DNA from: a virus
Taxonomy: Duplodnaviria; Heunggongvirae; Uroviricota; Caudoviricetes
IMG/VR virus record: IMGVR_UViG_3300028586_000764
Reading direction: 5' to 3' (one strand)
Length of the DNA: 17,640 bases
Shown here: positions 2,460 to 17,640 of the stretch, piece after piece
How the letters are laid out: each line of letters starts with the position of its first letter
Position numbering within the stretch: position 1 is the stretch's first letter
Notes under the pieces: model-generated
Databases searched by the model: none
Seen by the model: the letters and a program-made list of their open reading frames with translations, nothing else
Told to the model about the DNA's origin: nothing
Translations under genes and position numbers: made by a program

Positions 2460-2502
2460 CAATGGGCGAAAGAAAACCCCTGCAATGCAGGGGTCTAAAG
2501 AA

Positions 2503-3168
2503 TTACTTCTGAGCGGGATAGGCCAGCTCTTTGTATTGCTCCGTCAGTTCCGGGTCTTTGCGCAGTTCAAGCTTCTTGCGCAGCTTTTCGCGGTACGCGT
2601 CAACCATGTTGACCGAATTCACGAGTTCATCGACGACTTCGCGGGGCACCTCTTTGGTTCCATCCAGCACGCCCTTGTTGAACTCGAAGCCCTCGGCCCA
2701 GCTAGGGTTGTTCGATACTTCGCGACCCAGCTGTCGAATCCGCTCGAATGCTTCGAGATGGATGCTCAGCAGCGTGACCACCGCTTCCACGTCGTCGTTC
2801 GACGGCCTGTAAGGGGATTCGCGTGGCGTCGCGTCCTTAACGCCACAAGCGACCAGGACCTCGGCCACCTGCTGCACCGTCGGGTCCGTGCCGTCGAGCT
2901 TCTTCAGCTCTTGAATGACATCCGTGAATCCGGCCAGCGCCGACCAGCTGTCGTCGTACGCTTTCAGGTACGGAACGTTTCGGTTGGCCAGCTCACGCCA
3001 CTTGATGCTGAACTCGCCAGAAGTGCCGCCATCTGGGCAATAATAGCCCAACATGATTTCGTCGTCCCCTGGTTTGCTGTCTTTCGACCGGTTGGCGTCG
3101 CCATACCAGGCTTGCGAAGAAATGATGAATCGGCGTTCGTCGCCTTCGTGCTTGTTTTTTTGCGTCAT
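2503..3168 (-). CDS. Hypothetical protein (221 aa), phage/plasmid type
   Basis: ATG start with AAGGA SD. The N-terminal block GGTSGEFSIKW...LKAYDDSWSAL...LDGTDPTVQQVAEVLVACGVKDATPRE resembles uncharacterised phage/plasmid proteins (recognition only). C-terminal half is helical and charged. Confidence 0.85.
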   Translation of the reverse strand: MTQKNKHEGDERRFIISSQAWYGDANRSKDSKPGDDEIMLGYYCPDGGTSGEFSIKWRELANRNVPYLKAYDDSWSALAGFTDVIQELKKLDGTDPTVQQVAEVLVACGVKDATPRESPYRPSNDDVEAVVTLLSIHLEAFERIRQLGREVSNNPSWAEGFEFNKGVLDGTKEVPREVVDELVNSVNMVDAYREKLRKKLELRKDPELTEQYKELAYPAQK

Positions 3169-3317
3169 CGCTTGTCCTTGTTGAAGTGAAATGCCCTTTC
3201 CAATATAGCGATGTTACCAATTCATGGGCCTGGTAGGAAAAAGGAACGCACTGGTTTGATTTAGAGGTGCTTCGCTACACTGACACATTAGGACATTTTT
3301 TCAGAAGGAGAACTCGC

Positions 3318-10584: not shown

Positions 10585-11358
10585 ATGCGACAACTCATCC
10601 TGTCATGTGTAACTGTGTTGCTGCTTAGTACCTCAGCAGGGACAGCGGCACAGGGTATCCCGGACGACCAGTACCAACAGCTTAAGCAAGCCTATCCCTC
10701 TTTCGCCAAGGCAGAAGCTCGACTCAACGAAGCCTACCGACTCGTGAGGGCTGAAGCAGACCCACTTGAGGCTGAGGGCCTACGTAGACAGCAGCGCGCT
10801 TGGATTAACGAGCGAGGGGCTGTGTATGAGTCAATCGGGGCCAACGACGAACTTGATGAATCGCAGAAAGTTGATGTTCTTACTACGATGGCTGCCGAGC
10901 GCGAGCATCAGATAAAGGTGCTCGAAGAAAAGTTCAACCGTGTCCCAGTAGAAGACGAACCAGAAGGTCTCGAAATCGACGATGCTCCCCTAGAAGCGGT
11001 AGCTGATTCGGTTGTACCCGATACATCCCCGCAAGCAGCCCCCCAGCCATCCCTAGAAGCTAACCACCAGCGCGAAGCAATCAATGAGATGCTAATGTGG
11101 TACTATGCAGGAGCTGTATTTCTTGTTGCCGTTTTATTGCTAGTTAAAGTTAGCAGAGCCATTCAAGCGGCAAAGCAGCGACGAATGCGGCAGGAACAGC
11201 TAACTGCGATTGCAGACGACATGGCGAATCAAATATGCGCCCACGCAGCTGGAGCGCTAACACGGTTGCGCGTAGAGCAAGAAGTGCTTGCTCGGCGCGA
11301 AGAACTTCAGGCCGCCGAGAGAGACTTAAAAATCGCATTAACTGAACGAAAGGGGTAA
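10585..11358 (+). CDS. Signal peptide + LprI (DUF1311)-like lysozyme-inhibitor domain + acidic/Pro linker + TM helix + coiled coil
   Basis: Signal MRQLILSCVTVLLLSTSAGTAA. The segment AEARLNEAYRLV...LRRQQRAWINER matches the LprI/DUF1311 pattern. TM MLMWYYAGAVFLVAVLLLVKV; C-terminal heptad-like helix. Confidence 0.72.
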   Translation: MRQLILSCVTVLLLSTSAGTAAQGIPDDQYQQLKQAYPSFAKAEARLNEAYRLVRAEADPLEAEGLRRQQRAWINERGAVYESIGANDELDESQKVDVLTTMAAEREHQIKVLEEKFNRVPVEDEPEGLEIDDAPLEAVADSVVPDTSPQAAPQPSLEANHQREAINEMLMWYYAGAVFLVAVLLLVKVSRAIQAAKQRRMRQEQLTAIADDMANQICAHAAGALTRLRVEQEVLARREELQAAERDLKIALTERKG

Positions 11359-11445
11359 CAACCTCTGTGAGACCATTATATCTAGATGACAACTACCTGA
11401 AGTAATGGTAAAATGTTCTCATATTGACGTGTCGAATTTAACGCC

Positions 11446-11474
11446 TTGCTGAAAATGTTCAGAAGGTATAAAGT
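11446..11474 (+). promoter_or_regulatory. Candidate sigma70 promoter for the leader-thrS transcript
   Basis: TTGCTG (11446-11451), 17 nt, TAAAGT (11469-11474). Only a partial match to consensus. Confidence 0.35.
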
Positions 11475-11513
11475 CGATACCCATACCTGACAGAATTCAC
11501 GCAACTGGACCCA

Positions 11514-11606
11514 ATGAACGCTTTCCGCACAACGACTACGACCACCACCACTGGCCCGACCGGGCTGGCGGTGGTGAGTTTGGTCGTCGTGTCGACAAGT
11601 CGATAG
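11514..11606 (+). CDS. Threonine-rich leader peptide (30 aa) MNAFRTTTTTTTTGPTGLAVVSLVVVSTSR
   Basis: ATG at 11514; eight consecutive Thr codons ACA ACG ACT ACG ACC ACC ACC ACT at 11529-11552; TAG at 11604-11606; lies 114 nt upstream of a ThrRS gene. Below the ORF-track size cutoff. Confidence 0.9.
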   Translation: MNAFRTTTTTTTTGPTGLAVVSLVVVSTSR

Positions 11607-11680
11607 CGCAGCCCAGTAGCTCACCACACCTCTCGCCGCCCGGTCCAGGTCTCGTACCTGCACCGGGCGGTTTGCATTTC
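11529..11680 (+). promoter_or_regulatory. Ribosome-mediated transcription attenuator (1:2, 2:3, 3:4 helices)
   Basis: 1:2 = ACGACCA (11538-44)/TGGTCGT (11581-87) and CACCAC (11546-51)/GTGGTG (11571-76). 2:3 = GTGGTGAG (11571-78)/CTCACCAC (11620-27), GGCG (11567-70)/CGCC (11634-37) and GGGC (11562-65)/GCCC (11638-41). 3:4 = terminator 11636-11670. Confidence 0.8.
11636..11679 (+). terminator. Attenuator terminator hairpin
   Basis: CCGCCCGGT-c-CAGGT-ctcgt-ACCTG-c-ACCGGGCGG (14 bp with one C-C mismatch) followed by TTTGCATTT, an interrupted U-tract. Confidence 0.72.
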
Positions 11681-11720
11681 AAATCCTGAATTACCACAAC
11701 ACACTATCTGGAGCCTTACC

Positions 11721-12908
11721 ATGAACGAAGAACGTTACCTCGATGTCGCCGCCCGCATGCAGCTTATCCACCTGGGCCAGTCCGCCGGTGTAGTCTACTG
11801 GCAGCCTGCCGGCCTGAACTTGTACGAGCGACTGCGCAGCTATATCCGTCGCATTCACCGCCAGCATGGCTACCTCGAGGTCAAGAGCCCAAGCCTCGTC
11901 GGGCTGGAAGTGTTCGAGCGCTCGGGCCACCTCGGCAAATACCGGGAAAACATGTTCTTGGCCAATCAGGTCAACGACCCTGCGCGCCATCCGGACGTTC
12001 AGGCTTACGGCCTGCGCCCGATGAGCTGCCCAAACCATATTGAGCTGTACGGCTGCGCCCGCCGCAGCTATCGCGAACTGCCAATGCAGCTCTTCGAGTT
12101 TGGCGACGTTTTCCGCAATGAGCCGTCTGGCTCCCTCCAGGTGCTGTTCCGCCAGCGCCAATTCACCCAGGATGACAGCCACGTCTTCGCCGGCGAAAGC
12201 CAGGTGGCGGAAGTGGCCGCACGTTACCTGTCCATGGCGCAGCAGGTATTCCACGACCTCGGCTTCGAGTCCGTTGAGTATGCGCTCTCGCTGCGCCCGG
12301 CCGAGCGATTTGGCGAAGATGTTCTGTGGGACCGTGCTGAAGAGTCGCTGCGCTCGGCGTTTCGCGGCGCCGGCCTGGCCTGGAAAGAGCAGCCCGGTGA
12401 AGGGGCGTTCTATGGCCCCAAAATTGAACTGGGTGTGCGCGACAAGCTGGGCCGTCTCTGGCAGATGGGCACCCTGCAGCTGGACTACGTGCTGCCAGAG
12501 CGATTCGACCTGTCGTACCAGGCGGCTAGCGGCGCCTACGAGCGCCCAGTCATCCTGCACCACGCAGTGCTGGGCTCGCTCGAGCGCATGATTGGCATTT
12601 TGCTGGAAGTGCATGGCGAAGCGCTGCCGGCGTTCCTGCACCCCTATCCGGCAGTTGTGCTCGCCGTGTCCGAAAAGAGCGCAGAATACGCCAAGCGCGT
12701 GCATTCCGAGCTACTTAAGGCAGAGCCGGACGCCCTGCTGGATGACTCGAACGACACCCTCGGTGCCAAGTTGCGCCTGTGGCGTTCGCGCGGGGTGGCC
12801 GCTATCTATGTCATCGGCGAGAAAGAGGCTGAGCGCTTTGCCCAGGAAGGCCAGGTGTGGGCGATGCTCTCGGAAGGGCGTAGCCAAAAGCCAGTGCAAG
12901 TTGCCTAA
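11721..12908 (+). CDS. thrS: Threonyl-tRNA synthetase, catalytic + anticodon-binding domains only (395 aa)
   Basis: SGHLGKYRENMF, RPMSCPNH (Zn Cys), FRNEPSGSL..LFRQRQFTQDDSHVF (motif 2, Zn His), GEGAFYGPKIE, WQMGTLQLD, ILHHAVLGSLERMIGIL (Zn His, motif 3). C-terminal anticodon domain ...SNDTLGAKLR...VIGEKE. GGAG SD 7 nt upstream. Confidence 0.96.
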   Translation: MNEERYLDVAARMQLIHLGQSAGVVYWQPAGLNLYERLRSYIRRIHRQHGYLEVKSPSLVGLEVFERSGHLGKYRENMFLANQVNDPARHPDVQAYGLRPMSCPNHIELYGCARRSYRELPMQLFEFGDVFRNEPSGSLQVLFRQRQFTQDDSHVFAGESQVAEVAARYLSMAQQVFHDLGFESVEYALSLRPAERFGEDVLWDRAEESLRSAFRGAGLAWKEQPGEGAFYGPKIELGVRDKLGRLWQMGTLQLDYVLPERFDLSYQAASGAYERPVILHHAVLGSLERMIGILLEVHGEALPAFLHPYPAVVLAVSEKSAEYAKRVHSELLKAEPDALLDDSNDTLGAKLRLWRSRGVAAIYVIGEKEAERFAQEGQVWAMLSEGRSQKPVQVA

Positions 12909-12969
12909 CGGCGCTGGCGGGTAAACGTGATTGGCTAGACAAGACAACCCTATAACCGGAGTGTCTTCC

Positions 12970-13560
12970 ATGCGCTACATTTTGCCCGCCCTCTTTTGTG
13001 CTGCTGCCCTGAGCCTGGCCACAGCTGCATCAGCGGCGGATAACCCGTCGACCGGCACAGAACAAGTCAAGCCCGTCGTGAGCCCGACCGCCGCCCTGAT
13101 GGCGGATTTGGCCGAGGAGGTTGTCGAGTCTCTTGGAGACGTTCAAGGCAGTGGCGTGGCCGTGGCCGCTGTTACGACTGACACGCGCCTGGAGCGCGCT
13201 TTGCAAGAAGCCGTTGTGACCGCATTGTTCGAGAAGGGCATTCCGGTGCTGGAGGCGCCTACTGCGGGAGCGCCTACCATTCACCTTGTGGCATTTGCAA
13301 CTCCTGTGGCGGCCAGCAGCGAAGACCATTCCAATATTCTGTCCAAAGGCTTCTCAGTAGTGCGCAATGTCCTGGTCGCCGACCCCCGTGTAAGCTTGGT
13401 CACCAAGCCATTTGTGCGAGATGGAAAGAAAGCGGCTGACGCCGCACTCATCGTGACAGTAAGCGTGGCCAAGCAAGGCCGATTCGTCGCCCGCAAAACC
13501 AATGCGTACACGCTGCCGGGTTCGGAGCCGTTCGCGCAGCTGGCACTGACTTCACCGTAA
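12970..13560 (+). CDS. Putative exported protein (196 aa)
   Basis: ATG at 12970 with GGAG SD. Signal peptide MRYILPALFCAAALSLATAASA-AD. The alpha/beta core (VAVAAV...LERALQEAVVTALFEKGIPVL) is only loosely reminiscent of FlgO/CsgG-type domains. Confidence 0.8.
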   Translation: MRYILPALFCAAALSLATAASAADNPSTGTEQVKPVVSPTAALMADLAEEVVESLGDVQGSGVAVAAVTTDTRLERALQEAVVTALFEKGIPVLEAPTAGAPTIHLVAFATPVAASSEDHSNILSKGFSVVRNVLVADPRVSLVTKPFVRDGKKAADAALIVTVSVAKQGRFVARKTNAYTLPGSEPFAQLALTSP

Positions 13561-14324: not shown

Positions 14325-15665
14325 TTACGGCAGTTCCAGCTCGATGTAGTCGCCGAAAGGTGGCTTGATGCCGCGGCGGGTGCCTTCGGGTACCGCCCAG
14401 AGAACTGGGTAGTCCGGGGCGACTGTCGGGAAAGTGCCTTCCAGGTCGGTCAGGTAGATGAAGCAAGTGCAGTCGATGCCCTCGTCTTCCACCCACTTGA
14501 ACGGTGGTCGGAAATCCGTACCGCCGCCGCCCTTCGCTTTTGCCTCGAACTCTTCTTCGTCACCGGAGAAGATGGTTTGCACGCGTTGAATCGTGGCGTC
14601 CACGTCCAGCACATACACTGCTTCTGGCTTGATGGTCTCGATGATGTCGAGCAGCTCGCCGTTCATTAGTTGCAAGTACTTGCCCCCAATGGAACCGCTA
14701 GTGTCGCGCACGATGACGATAGCTGGAACAGTGCTGCCGACCATGCCGGGGAAGAAAAATCCCGTGTGCATGTAGCGCATATTTGGCCGCGACCAGGTGT
14801 AGTCAGGCGAAGCCAGCGAGGTCTCGAAGAAGTGCCGAAGCTCCTCTTTCCAGTTCGTTGGCGACTTCAGGGTTTCACCTACCAGACGCTGCATATCCCC
14901 TGCAAGATTTCCTTGCATTCGGACCGCAGTGTCCATGGCCATTTTCCAGTCGGCTTCGTGATTCTCGTCTTCTGGCGCTGGTCGAACTTCACCAGGGATG
15001 GGCGCCGGTTTTGATTCTGGCTTGGAGCCAGGACCACCTTTACCGTCTCCGTCCGCATCGCCATCGCCTTCGCCACCACCCGGACTTTCACCCGGAGCGG
15101 GAGTTGAAGGACCAGGCGAGTCGCCGTCGTCTTTCGAGTCATCGCTACCACTGCCATCCTCGTCCCCGTCGCCTGGAGCAGGCGATGGCGTATCCTTGCT
15201 GCCACCTTTAGAGGGCGCAGGCTTGCTTCCCGAAGGAGGCGCAGCCTGCAGCTTCTCGTAGATGGCTTCTGCGGACAGACCCTCGTACTGCTGGTCATGC
15301 GGAACACCTGCTGGCAACCGCATACCAGAATTGACCAGCAGCGGGTAAATGGCAAAGGTACAAGCTTTCTGCCACTCACCAGACTCACGGGAGTCCTGCC
15401 GCCACGGGTGACCCGCAGCGATGTGCGTGACCGACTTGCCGATGATACCTCGCAGCTCTACGTCTGCCAGACTGTCGACATAGCCCGGGTTGAACCCGAA
15501 CGACACCGAATCAGTCCACACCGTCGAGCAGGAAGGGTCTTCCACGAGTTTCAGCCGCAAGGCCAACATCCCGTAGAAAGGCTCATCCATCACGAGGTTG
15601 GCTCGGGCACGGACCATACGCTCGAGGCGCTGGGCCGCAGCCGCGGCGACCTTATCAGGCTGCAC
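14325..15665 (-). CDS. DUF2201-type metallopeptidase-like domain + Gly/Pro/Asp linker + VWA domain protein
   Basis: N-terminal FYGMLAL...TVWTD...FNPGYV...HIAAGH..R...W.KAC pattern of DUF2201 proteins. VWA MIDAS RDTSGS, GGGGTDF, YLTDLEG. The GTG start overlaps the upstream stop by 11 nt. Confidence 0.88.
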   Translation of the reverse strand: MQPDKVAAAAAQRLERMVRARANLVMDEPFYGMLALRLKLVEDPSCSTVWTDSVSFGFNPGYVDSLADVELRGIIGKSVTHIAAGHPWRQDSRESGEWQKACTFAIYPLLVNSGMRLPAGVPHDQQYEGLSAEAIYEKLQAAPPSGSKPAPSKGGSKDTPSPAPGDGDEDGSGSDDSKDDGDSPGPSTPAPGESPGGGEGDGDADGDGKGGPGSKPESKPAPIPGEVRPAPEDENHEADWKMAMDTAVRMQGNLAGDMQRLVGETLKSPTNWKEELRHFFETSLASPDYTWSRPNMRYMHTGFFFPGMVGSTVPAIVIVRDTSGSIGGKYLQLMNGELLDIIETIKPEAVYVLDVDATIQRVQTIFSGDEEEFEAKAKGGGGTDFRPPFKWVEDEGIDCTCFIYLTDLEGTFPTVAPDYPVLWAVPEGTRRGIKPPFGDYIELELP

Positions 15666-16557
15666 GCTTGAACTCCGCAGCAGCCGGGTTCATGCCGGCG
15701 CCAGCCGGATTCATGAACGCCTGCATCACATTGAAGACAGTCTGGGCTTCTGCGGCCACGCGTTGACGCGTATCCGGGTTGAGCTTGACTGCTTCAGCCG
15801 AGATGCCGGCCAGGCTCTTCTGCAGACGCTCGGACAGCATGTCCAGGCGCTCGTCGTTCATGATGTTCATGCGCGGCAGCAGAGCTGCCAGGTCACGCAC
15901 ACCTGCGATGGTTTCTTCCTTGACGTAGGCCTTCTCGTCACCCAGCTTGCTGGTCAGCTTCGCCAGACGCTCGTAGAGGTCTTCAAAGTTGCGGCGATTT
16001 GCGCGAGCATACGTCTCGTGCATGTCCGCCTCCAGCTTGCTGCGCATGGCATCGGCTTCGGCCGGGTCCAGTCCCAGTTCCAGCAGTCCGGTGGATGCCG
16101 GCATCGGCTGAGCCTTGATTTCGAACGCGTAGCGCGATTTCAGGGCGGCCTGGTTAGGATAGTCGGCAGGGTCGTACAGCTTACCCAGCACAGAGGCTGC
16201 TTCGCCTTTGATGGTGTCGTACTGGGCCAGGAAGTCCAGCACGCCGTTCTCGAAGTCCGACTTGTAGCGGCGCATCTGCGTCATGTACGCATCGAAGTTC
16301 GCGGTCAGCAGGATACGCGGGCCGTCGTGCATCCAGGCATGCGTGTTCTCGTAGTGGAACGTGCGCGCTGCGCGGATGACGCTGAACAGGCGGTCCATGA
16401 CATCGGTCTTGGGCAGTAGGCTCTTGCGCAGACGGCACAGACGTTTGTCTTTGACGTCGTTGGCATCGGCCACGTCCTGCGAAACACGCTTGTCCTGACG
16501 GTTTGCGTCCCAGTTGCTGATGTTCAGCGTGACGAGGATTGCGTTTTTGATTTCCAT
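15655..16557 (-). CDS. DUF3150-like protein (300 aa)
   Basis: AAGGA SD. Pattern LVTLNIS.W...K.LL.........R..HY..T..W...G.RIL...FL..Y......LG.LY...DYP....L...Y.F typical of the family that accompanies MoxR/VWA pairs in mobile elements (recognition only). Confidence 0.8.
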   Translation of the reverse strand: MEIKNAILVTLNISNWDANRQDKRVSQDVADANDVKDKRLCRLRKSLLPKTDVMDRLFSVIRAARTFHYENTHAWMHDGPRILLTANFDAYMTQMRRYKSDFENGVLDFLAQYDTIKGEAASVLGKLYDPADYPNQAALKSRYAFEIKAQPMPASTGLLELGLDPAEADAMRSKLEADMHETYARANRRNFEDLYERLAKLTSKLGDEKAYVKEETIAGVRDLAALLPRMNIMNDERLDMLSERLQKSLAGISAEAVKLNPDTRQRVAAEAQTVFNVMQAFMNPAGAGMNPAAAEFKRAA

Positions 16558-16614
16558 AGTAGTGTCCTTGATTTTTTTTTGTCGAAAAGTGATGCTCTTG
16601 CTGACCAGCGATGC

Positions 16615-17640
16615 TTAGCCGAACAGCGATGCCAGCTCGCCAGTCGTTGCCTGGATGTACGCAGATGTCTGCGTCAGCTCCGGCTTGCGTTTCTGGCAGT
16701 CGCGAATCAGACGCGCAGCCATTTCGCCGCTACCGTCCTTATTCAGGCGTTCTGCATAGCGCACAACTTGCCCGAAGTTTTCCGGGTTGGCGTAGTACGC
16801 CAGCGCACTTGTCAGCATGTACAGCACCGAAACGTCCTTGCTGAGCTTGGATTTTTCCGGGTTGAGCAGAATCGAGTCCGGCGAAGGCAGCGAGCGCCAG
16901 TTCTTCAGGAACTCGACCACTTGCGTAGCAGCACCCACACCGATTGCACCAGCCAGGCCGTCGCGTTCGATGTCCGTGCCGAGTTTCGCCAGGCCCGCGT
17001 TCATCAAACGGCCCGCGTTCGCCCAGGTACGAGGACTTGGGCTGTTCACGATTTCCGTGGTCGGAGCGTGCATCAGCAGCGAGGTCGGGTTCATGCGCAG
17101 GTAAGCAATCAACTCACCAGGCATGGCTGCCCCCAGCGCCCAGTCCACCCATGCGTCCAGCGAAGGCTCGACGTTGATGATGGTCACGAAGCGGCTTTTC
17201 ACAGGCTCCAGGATGCCGTTGACGCCGGCGCGGTCAGCCTTACGGTTGGTCGCAGCGACGAACGTTACGCAGTCCGGCAGCACGTGCTCACCGATACGGC
17301 GAGCCAGCAGCAACTGCATGTAAGCCGCCTGAACAGCCGGAGACGCTTGCCCCAGGTCGTCCAGGAACCACAGCAGTGGTCGAGTTGCCTTCAGCGCCCT
17401 GGCCAGGTGGCCATAAGGCAGGAACTTCGCGAATTCACCAGAGGCGTCCGCGTAAGGGAAACCTTTTGGGTCCGTTGGGTCTTCGACGACCGGATGCGAG
17501 ATTTGCAGGTCCATGCCCTCGAAAAGGGAGACTTGTTCAACCAGGTCCGATTTGCCGACACCCGGCGGACCCACCAGAATTACTGGCAGTTTGTTGCTGA
17601 CGCAAAGCCGGGTAAGCGCGATTGCTTGGATGATATCCAT
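16615..17640 (-). CDS. MoxR-type AAA+ ATPase (start may lie beyond the window edge)
   Basis: Walker A GPPGVGKS, Walker B LLWFLDD, sensor-1 VAATN, Arg finger PVKSRF, SPRTW motif. The ATG occupies the last three bases of the window. Confidence 0.93.
   Translation of the reverse strand: MDIIQAIALTRLCVSNKLPVILVGPPGVGKSDLVEQVSLFEGMDLQISHPVVEDPTDPKGFPYADASGEFAKFLPYGHLARALKATRPLLWFLDDLGQASPAVQAAYMQLLLARRIGEHVLPDCVTFVAATNRKADRAGVNGILEPVKSRFVTIINVEPSLDAWVDWALGAAMPGELIAYLRMNPTSLLMHAPTTEIVNSPSPRTWANAGRLMNAGLAKLGTDIERDGLAGAIGVGAATQVVEFLKNWRSLPSPDSILLNPEKSKLSKDVSVLYMLTSALAYYANPENFGQVVRYAERLNKDGSGEMAARLIRDCQKRKPELTQTSAYIQATTGELASLFG

Follow-up and report, generated by a model that had tools for sequence, protein, structure and literature searches.

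A Thr-codon leader and switchable hairpins that very probably control a shortened, proofreading-free threonyl-tRNA synthetase

Control of a synthetase gene by a leader-peptide attenuator is established for pheM-pheST of Escherichia coli, in which, as at the locus described here, a leader rich in cognate codons, alternative hairpins and an intrinsic terminator place a synthetase under the control of the charging of its own tRNA. The two differ in that pheST senses Phe and encodes the cell's only synthetase of its kind, full-size, essential and not depleted of its cognate residue, and there is no sequence relation between them. Another point of reference is the thrL-thrABC leader of E. coli, which is Thr-rich and also reads Ile codons. 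Like the present leader it senses Thr-tRNA through a four-segment logic, whereas the genes that it controls are those of biosynthesis; the corresponding Rfam model (RF00506, Thr_leader) gave no match, at the gathering score or at E values up to 10, in the window, that is, the whole stretch of 17,640 nucleotides of viral DNA analysed here. Outside E. coli, attenuators have been predicted before trpS and leuS in Streptomyces, with pheST cited as the precedent (PMC1262725), and before hisS paralogues in Bacillus (PMC2965389), and in Streptomyces lividans the thrL-thrS leader holds only two Thr codons, the authors having found no clear terminator (PMC8079986). These are likewise leader-peptide attenuators preceding synthetase genes, and they differ from the present case in that no shortened or cognate-free enzyme is involved.

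The full-length ThrZ of Bacillus subtilis offers a likeness of another kind, as a back-up threonyl-tRNA synthetase (ThrRS) switched on by low charging of tRNA-Thr, although its sensor is a tRNA-binding RNA and not a ribosome placed on Thr codons. Its gene, thrZ, is the normally silent second ThrRS gene that Putzer et al. in 1992 reportedly found to be induced through T-box antitermination when charged tRNA-Thr is low. As regards the enzyme, engineered N-terminally truncated forms of E. coli ThrRS comprising residues 242-642 (PDB 1EVK/1EVL, 4HWO and 6L2P) have the same domain content as the protein of the window and align with it from end to end; unlike them, the window protein is natural, and it is about 40% identical to them, nearly free of Thr and below the cut-off of the TIGR00418 model.

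In this study, we describe a locus at which a shortened, proofreading-free ThrRS is very probably turned on by a mini-gene and a set of switchable hairpins when charged tRNA-Thr is low. The attenuation mechanism itself is of the textbook leader-peptide type. In the openly readable part of the literature, no paper turned up that describes a Thr-run attenuator ahead of a proteobacterial or phage thrS gene, a threonine-free ThrRS or an attenuator for this family of short ThrRS.

Leader, hairpins and predicted switch

The features of the locus are collected in Table 1. Translation of the region ahead of the ThrRS gene gives a 30-codon ORF in which eight Thr codons follow one another in the order ACA ACG ACT ACG ACC ACC ACC ACT, so that all four ACN codons are present, just as the original prediction had claimed. 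When the six frames of the window were searched for Thr runs of at least five residues, this run (T8) was the sole instance and, taking Thr as about 5% of codons, its chance is about 1e-10 per position. Its codons have been kept as Thr codons: in the four alignable loci of alignment A2, the first and second codon positions of the run are invariant, while the third positions vary in seven of the eight codons. The additional claim that every tRNA-Thr isoacceptor is thereby sampled is only an interpretation, in agreement with the four ACN codons found here and failing as a general rule, the relatives using two to four kinds. The start of the leader has only a weak GGA 5' of its ATG.

Table 1. Features of the attenuator locus and its surroundings in the window
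Feature	Position	Strand	Basis
Second promoter-like site	11386-11414	+	Consensus scan, putative
TATAAA, -10-like; candidate promoter of the leader transcript	11467..11472	+	Kept in the three closest loci of alignment A2
Putative leader ORF, 30 codons and TAG	11514..11606	+	Translation; Thr-run leader counterparts in 14/14 related loci
Putative sensing site, eight successive Thr codons (codons 6-13)	11529..11552	+	Translation, codon alignment
Helix 1:2, predicted anti-antiterminator and possible pause hairpin; Thr run with Val-codon segment	11532..11588	+	Unconstrained MFE fold
Segment 2, predicted antiterminator 5' strand; encodes G-P-T-G-L-A-V-V	11553..11580	+	Stalled-ribosome folds
Segment 3, predicted antiterminator 3' strand, overlapping the terminator 5' arm	11618..11651	+	Stalled-ribosome folds
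Predicted terminator hairpin 3:4, 10+5 = 15 pairs, -28.4 kcal/mol	11635..11671	+	Fold; equivalent in all related loci
U-rich tail UUGCAUUUC, interrupted	11672..11680	+	Sequence directly 3' of the hairpin
Shine-Dalgarno TGGAG of the synthetase gene	11709..11713	+	Sequence; invariant in alignment A2
ThrRS, 395 aa, catalytic core and anticodon-binding domain, 3 Thr	11721..12908	+	Pfam PF00587, PF03129
Module of AAA ATPase (phrog_1297), 300-aa ORF and DUF2201/VWA protein, tightly packed	14325-17640	-	Family searches

Folded without constraints, the RNA of positions 11500-11700 reaches -85 kcal/mol (z = -5.3 against shuffles) and adopts helix 1:2 together with a separate hairpin at 11635-11671, the terminator, whose stem has 15 pairs instead of the 14 originally counted. 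In helix 1:2 the Thr run is paired with the GGUGGUGAG...GUCGUC segment, the very pairing with the Val-codon stretch that had been foreseen. In a leader that is not translated, both helix 1:2 and the terminator form.

The states with a ribosome on the leader were simulated by masking the region under and behind the ribosome and by ending the transcript before the 3' arm of the terminator. A ribosome placed halfway along the Thr run leaves 11553-11580 paired with 11618-11651; in this fold 13 of the terminator 5' arm's 16 nucleotides are sequestered, which bears out the alternative 2:3 pairing that had been proposed with 11620-11641. Placed at the stop codon, the ribosome has its footprint (about 11589-11619) in the gap that separates segments 2 and 3. 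Only 4 of the 16 nucleotides are then paired upstream, helix 1:2 is restored on the 5' side of the ribosome (-38.3 kcal/mol), and the terminator folds on its 3' side (-29.0 kcal/mol). The geometry first suggested was therefore right in that stalling at 11529-11552 frees segment 2, and has to be corrected in that the ribosome at the TAG does not cover this segment, the outcome, termination, being the same. Segment 2 contains ACCGGGC, which recurs unchanged within the terminator 3' arm and belongs to a block that is invariant in alignment A2. Once the full terminator has been transcribed, the terminator fold (-65.8 kcal/mol) is favoured over the antiterminator fold (-55.5 kcal/mol) by about 10 kcal/mol even when the ribosome is stalled, so read-through would rest on kinetic trapping, with the antiterminator forming first, as in classical attenuators. 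The modelled folds thus place a predicted terminator between leader and gene, an antiterminator predicted to exclude it, and helix 1:2 as the presumptive anti-antiterminator; in silico, the thrL/hisL-type logic of the original prediction holds.

We consider it highly likely that the locus is a ribosome-mediated leader-peptide transcription attenuator, through which the level of charged tRNA-Thr governs a self-contained rescue gene. From the folds we infer stalling and read-through in the following manner. The transcript would begin 5' of 11514 and a ribosome would read the leader. With Thr-tRNA(Thr) in good supply, translation would proceed to the TAG (11604-11606), where the ribosome would stand between segments 2 and 3; helix 1:2 would re-form behind it, the terminator hairpin would form, and RNA polymerase would stop at the U-rich tail. 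In a shortage of Thr-tRNA(Thr), the ribosome would instead stall in the Thr8 run, occupying segment 1 and leaving segment 2 free to pair with segment 3 before the terminator 3' arm exists, and the 2:3 pairing would let the polymerase read through into the synthetase gene. In a leader that is not translated, helices 1:2 and 3:4 should both form and transcription should stop.

Conservation of the layout and alternative readings

The layout was compared across 14 loci, namely the window, 12 distinct loci obtained by exact protein look-up, and one, L131, from IMG/VR, where a single-protein query returned one distant match and an alignment query found L131. All 14 loci, with enzymes 54-94% identical and a G+C content ranging from 24 to 62%, carry a T4-T8 leader ORF and a terminator, and in each of them the hairpin and its U-tail lie 18-31 nt past the leader stop and 10-59 nt before the synthetase start. 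The neighbouring genes are unrelated among these loci; leader, terminator and synthetase are the only unit kept. In every one of the 13 loci that were folded, a ribosome placed in the Thr run releases, 2-22 nt further on, a segment for pairing with the terminator 5' arm, and this antiterminator pairing is lost or much reduced when the ribosome stands at the stop codon. The segment that follows the Thr run repeats a motif of the terminator 3' arm (CCGGGC in the window, GCTGGG in L088 and L131, CTGGGC in L129), and the three-way complementarity is kept even where the sequences of the loci cannot be aligned. Compared with dinucleotide shuffles, the duplex energy of segment 2 with the terminator arm was clearly better in only 5 of the 13 loci (p < 0.02), and it reached no significance in the G+C-rich ones; this comparison is taken as partial support. 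Where alignment is feasible, in the four loci of A2, the segment-2 block, both terminator arms and the ribosome-binding site of the synthetase are invariant.

Among IMG/VR ThrRS genes, Thr-run mini-ORFs are associated with a low Thr content of the enzyme. Under a strict criterion (three or more Thr in a row, in an ORF not exceeding 45 codons), a Thr-run mini-ORF was found at three of the five IMG/VR ThrRS genes with less than 2% Thr, versus 1 of the 74 with normal content (Fisher p = 5e-4). All five of the former have upstream mini-ORFs that contain Thr. The more distant phage ThrRS genes of normal Thr content lack the combination of leader and terminator.

The principle of a leader-peptide attenuator before a synthetase gene is widespread. 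The original prediction had mentioned Thr leaders predicted before some betaproteobacterial thrS genes, and this fits what was found in Burkholderiales, where 5 of 29 full-length thrS loci have an M-S-F-R-T4-G leader and a strong terminator. In these five (L102, L104, L105, L112 and L097) the leader has 14 codons, M-S-F-R-T-T-T-T-G..., and the terminator an eight-U run; the start of the leader resembles those of the short-enzyme cassettes (M-x-x-F-R-T8). Thr-run mini-ORFs are also present in at least 14 of 80 mainly sphingomonad thrS loci, those of L070, L023, L030, L052, L053, L055, L073, L075 and L079, mostly Sphingomonadales, being T4-T8 mini-ORFs before full-length housekeeping thrS genes. 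Six such loci were folded and gave G+C-rich hairpins with no clear U-run; the output mechanism of Sphingomonadales thrS may differ from that of the cassette. Two large IMG/VR contigs carry further arrangements. On one of 289 kb (L140:1200-2830), a Thr-containing leader with its terminator stands before tRNA-Thr(GGT) (1411-1482), which itself lies immediately ahead of a short ThrRS with one Thr in its first 350 residues; tRNA-Asn and tRNA-Thr(TGT) come after the enzyme gene. Here the sensor, the tRNA and the synthetase look like parts of a single unit. On another of 455 kb (L137:1270-1480), a six-codon mini-ORF, M-T-R-T-T-S, and a hairpin precede a short ThrRS, again with one Thr in the first 350 residues.

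These comparisons bear on the readings that compete with transcription attenuation. The leader might sense Thr-tRNA and act through Rho access, mRNA stability or downstream translation, with a hairpin that is structural only. The U-tail of the window is indeed interrupted, a simple consensus terminator scan of the window did not call the hairpin and tail, and the full-length thrS genes of Sphingomonadales have Thr-run leaders followed by hairpins without a U-run. However, canonical U-runs, cleaner than that of the window, stand directly 3' of the hairpin in the relatives of the cassette, and the thrS ribosome-binding site lies 38 nt past the hairpin and is free in every fold, which makes an output of this type improbable. 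Still less probable is that the leader transcript or peptide has a role of its own, besides or instead of control in cis, as a small RNA acting in trans or as a small hydrophobic peptide. A precedent exists in rnTrpL, an attenuator-derived small RNA that acts in trans (PMC6614838). Against it, the peptide outside the Thr run is not conserved in sequence between subfamilies, whereas the RNA complementarity is.

The position of the hairpin, downstream of an LprI-like gene on the same strand (10585-11358), would also allow it to be the terminator of that gene, the Thr-run ORF being fortuitous or without regulatory function. This we regard as very remote, given that the hairpin lies 277 nt past the stop codon of the LprI-like gene, with promoter-like sites in between, that T8 is the only such run in the window, and that in other loci the upstream gene is a different one or lies on the opposite strand, and yet leader and hairpin stay with the synthetase. 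Hardly more credible is one of the other established modes of thrS regulation, whether a T-box riboswitch or, on the model of E. coli thrS, an operator resembling tRNA that is bound by ThrRS. The window has no Rfam match at gathering scores and only chance-level ones at E up to 10, the T-box among neither, and no hairpin resembling an anticodon arm is found beside the thrS ribosome-binding site.

The synthetase and its threonine depletion

The enzyme governed, on the attenuation reading, by this leader is reduced to its core. As the original prediction had it, the downstream thrS copy is editing-less: Pfam recognizes the class II core and anticodon-binding domains only, and the TGS and editing (tRNA_SAD) domains are absent, the ORF beginning at E. 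coli residue ~247 and the DNA upstream of it being the attenuator. A core such as that of the truncated E. coli constructs charges tRNA-Thr and cannot clear Ser-tRNA-Thr. The 395-aa protein aligns over its full length with residues ~247-603 of E. coli ThrRS, with motifs 2 and 3 and the Zn-binding residues preserved; its alignment to the solved structures 6VU9 and 6L2P retains the C of PMSCP, the H of DDSHVF, the H of LHHAVLGS, the AFYGPK block and GSLER. It is active-looking, and the conserved active site and the Thr-specific sensor suggest that it charges tRNA-Thr. Against TIGR00418 (NCBIfam thrS) it scores 363 bits, below the cut-off of 383.65, because of which the family is named only 'aminoacyl-tRNA ligase-related' at NCBI. 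The relatives retrieved by protein search are 380-400 aa long, 56-98% identical and nearly all metagenomic. A resistance-type active site was also considered and set aside. The tyrosine targeted by obafluorin is presumably that of the AFYGPK motif, whose Tyr-Gly is unchanged, with no sign of obafluorin-type resistance. That the compound targets a ThrRS tyrosine is reported in PMC9880928.

The near-absence of Thr in the regulated enzyme, which had gone unnoticed in the original prediction, is the strongest feature in support of the attenuator. Only 3 of its 395 residues are Thr (0.76%; positions 149, 251 and 346), of which Thr149 and Thr251 occupy canonical ThrRS motif positions. Among the closest 120 homologues, 33 have no Thr at all and 37 have one, and the mean over a 27-member family alignment is 0.26%, as compared with 3.2% (range 2.2-5.1%) in the equivalent region of 80 full-length housekeeping ThrRS. 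At 3.2% Thr, a protein of this size would have three or fewer Thr with a probability of ~1e-3, and none with a probability of ~3e-6. Elsewhere in the window, gene products contain 1.3-11.9% Thr; the lowest after the synthetase is ORF 2485-3189, which encodes 234 aa with 3 Thr (1.3%) and belongs to no family.

A related tendency has been described by Fasani and Savageau, who found biosynthetic enzymes biased to a low content of the cognate amino acid, a modest statistical effect (PMC4209129). The likeness is that proteins needed in an amino-acid shortage hold little of that amino acid; the difference is that their bias concerns biosynthetic pathways, and here a synthetase holds zero to three cognate residues. 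The Thr-sensing leader and the Thr-poor composition agree with each other, which suggests that production of the enzyme is intended for times of Thr-tRNA shortage, and with only three Thr residues its synthesis should be possible under the inducing shortage. With three Thr codons remaining, the ThrRS gene of the window is not fully independent of Thr-tRNA.

Occurrence and meaning of the cassette

The cassette occurs in DNA of several kinds. Among public sequencing runs, no RNA run is listed as containing the DNA of the window, and the best-matching DNA run is a leaf-litter metagenome, its probable source. L131 sits on a 437-kb viral record (G405) rated 98% complete, in which distant homologues of two proteins of the window, the AAA ATPase and the DUF2201/VWA protein, adjoin each other, a hint of a huge-phage-like element as the origin of the window. 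Close relatives are found also on contigs of 0.85 and 1.46 Mb. A Variovorax genome has a short ThrRS (65% identity) in addition to a full-length thrS, that is, the short copy is accessory there, and among 401 Burkholderiales genomes searched this starting genome was the only one with the short type. By tblastn, reference phages and plasmids gave no relative above 60% identity. A pattern scan of metagenomes for a Thr run together with GCCCGACCGGG returned 61 stretches, two of them real cassettes, both on already known contigs.

Most of the neighbouring ORFs in the window match no family. ORF 12931-13560, just 3' of the synthetase, has the look of a secreted protein; alignments with its homologues begin at an internal Met, codon 14. 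Its counterpart in L081 shares 65% identity, the ORF at the corresponding downstream place in L127 is not recognisably related, and no Pfam or PHROG family is matched. As a partner of the cassette it was rejected, being kept only in the closest relatives and containing 8.1% Thr.

What is new here is the scarcity of Thr in the regulated enzyme. What gives it weight is the coupling of a sensor of charged tRNA-Thr to a synthetase purged of Thr and stripped of proofreading, and the fact that sensor and Thr-poor enzyme travel as a unit between unrelated genomes, the near-complete 437-kb viral record among them. For a family that carries no specific name in the databases, this provides a functional annotation obtained from sequence alone. 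We tentatively propose, at somewhat below even confidence, that leader, terminator and Thr-free core ThrRS could constitute a mobile translation-rescue cassette of huge phages and accessory DNA, which would stay silent while the host charges tRNA-Thr, fire when charging collapses and restart Thr decoding from zero, at the cost of unedited Ser-tRNA-Thr. If this is so, the restart would be possible because the rescue enzyme needs little or no Thr-tRNA for its own synthesis, and the triggers might be, for instance, starvation, host shut-off, a ThrRS inhibitor or a ThrRS-directed toxin. The arrangement points to a principle by which emergency synthetases in general may be built, in which a sensor made of cognate codons is combined with a cognate-free enzyme, and it offers a testable case of phages and mobile elements insuring translation against the loss of one charged tRNA.
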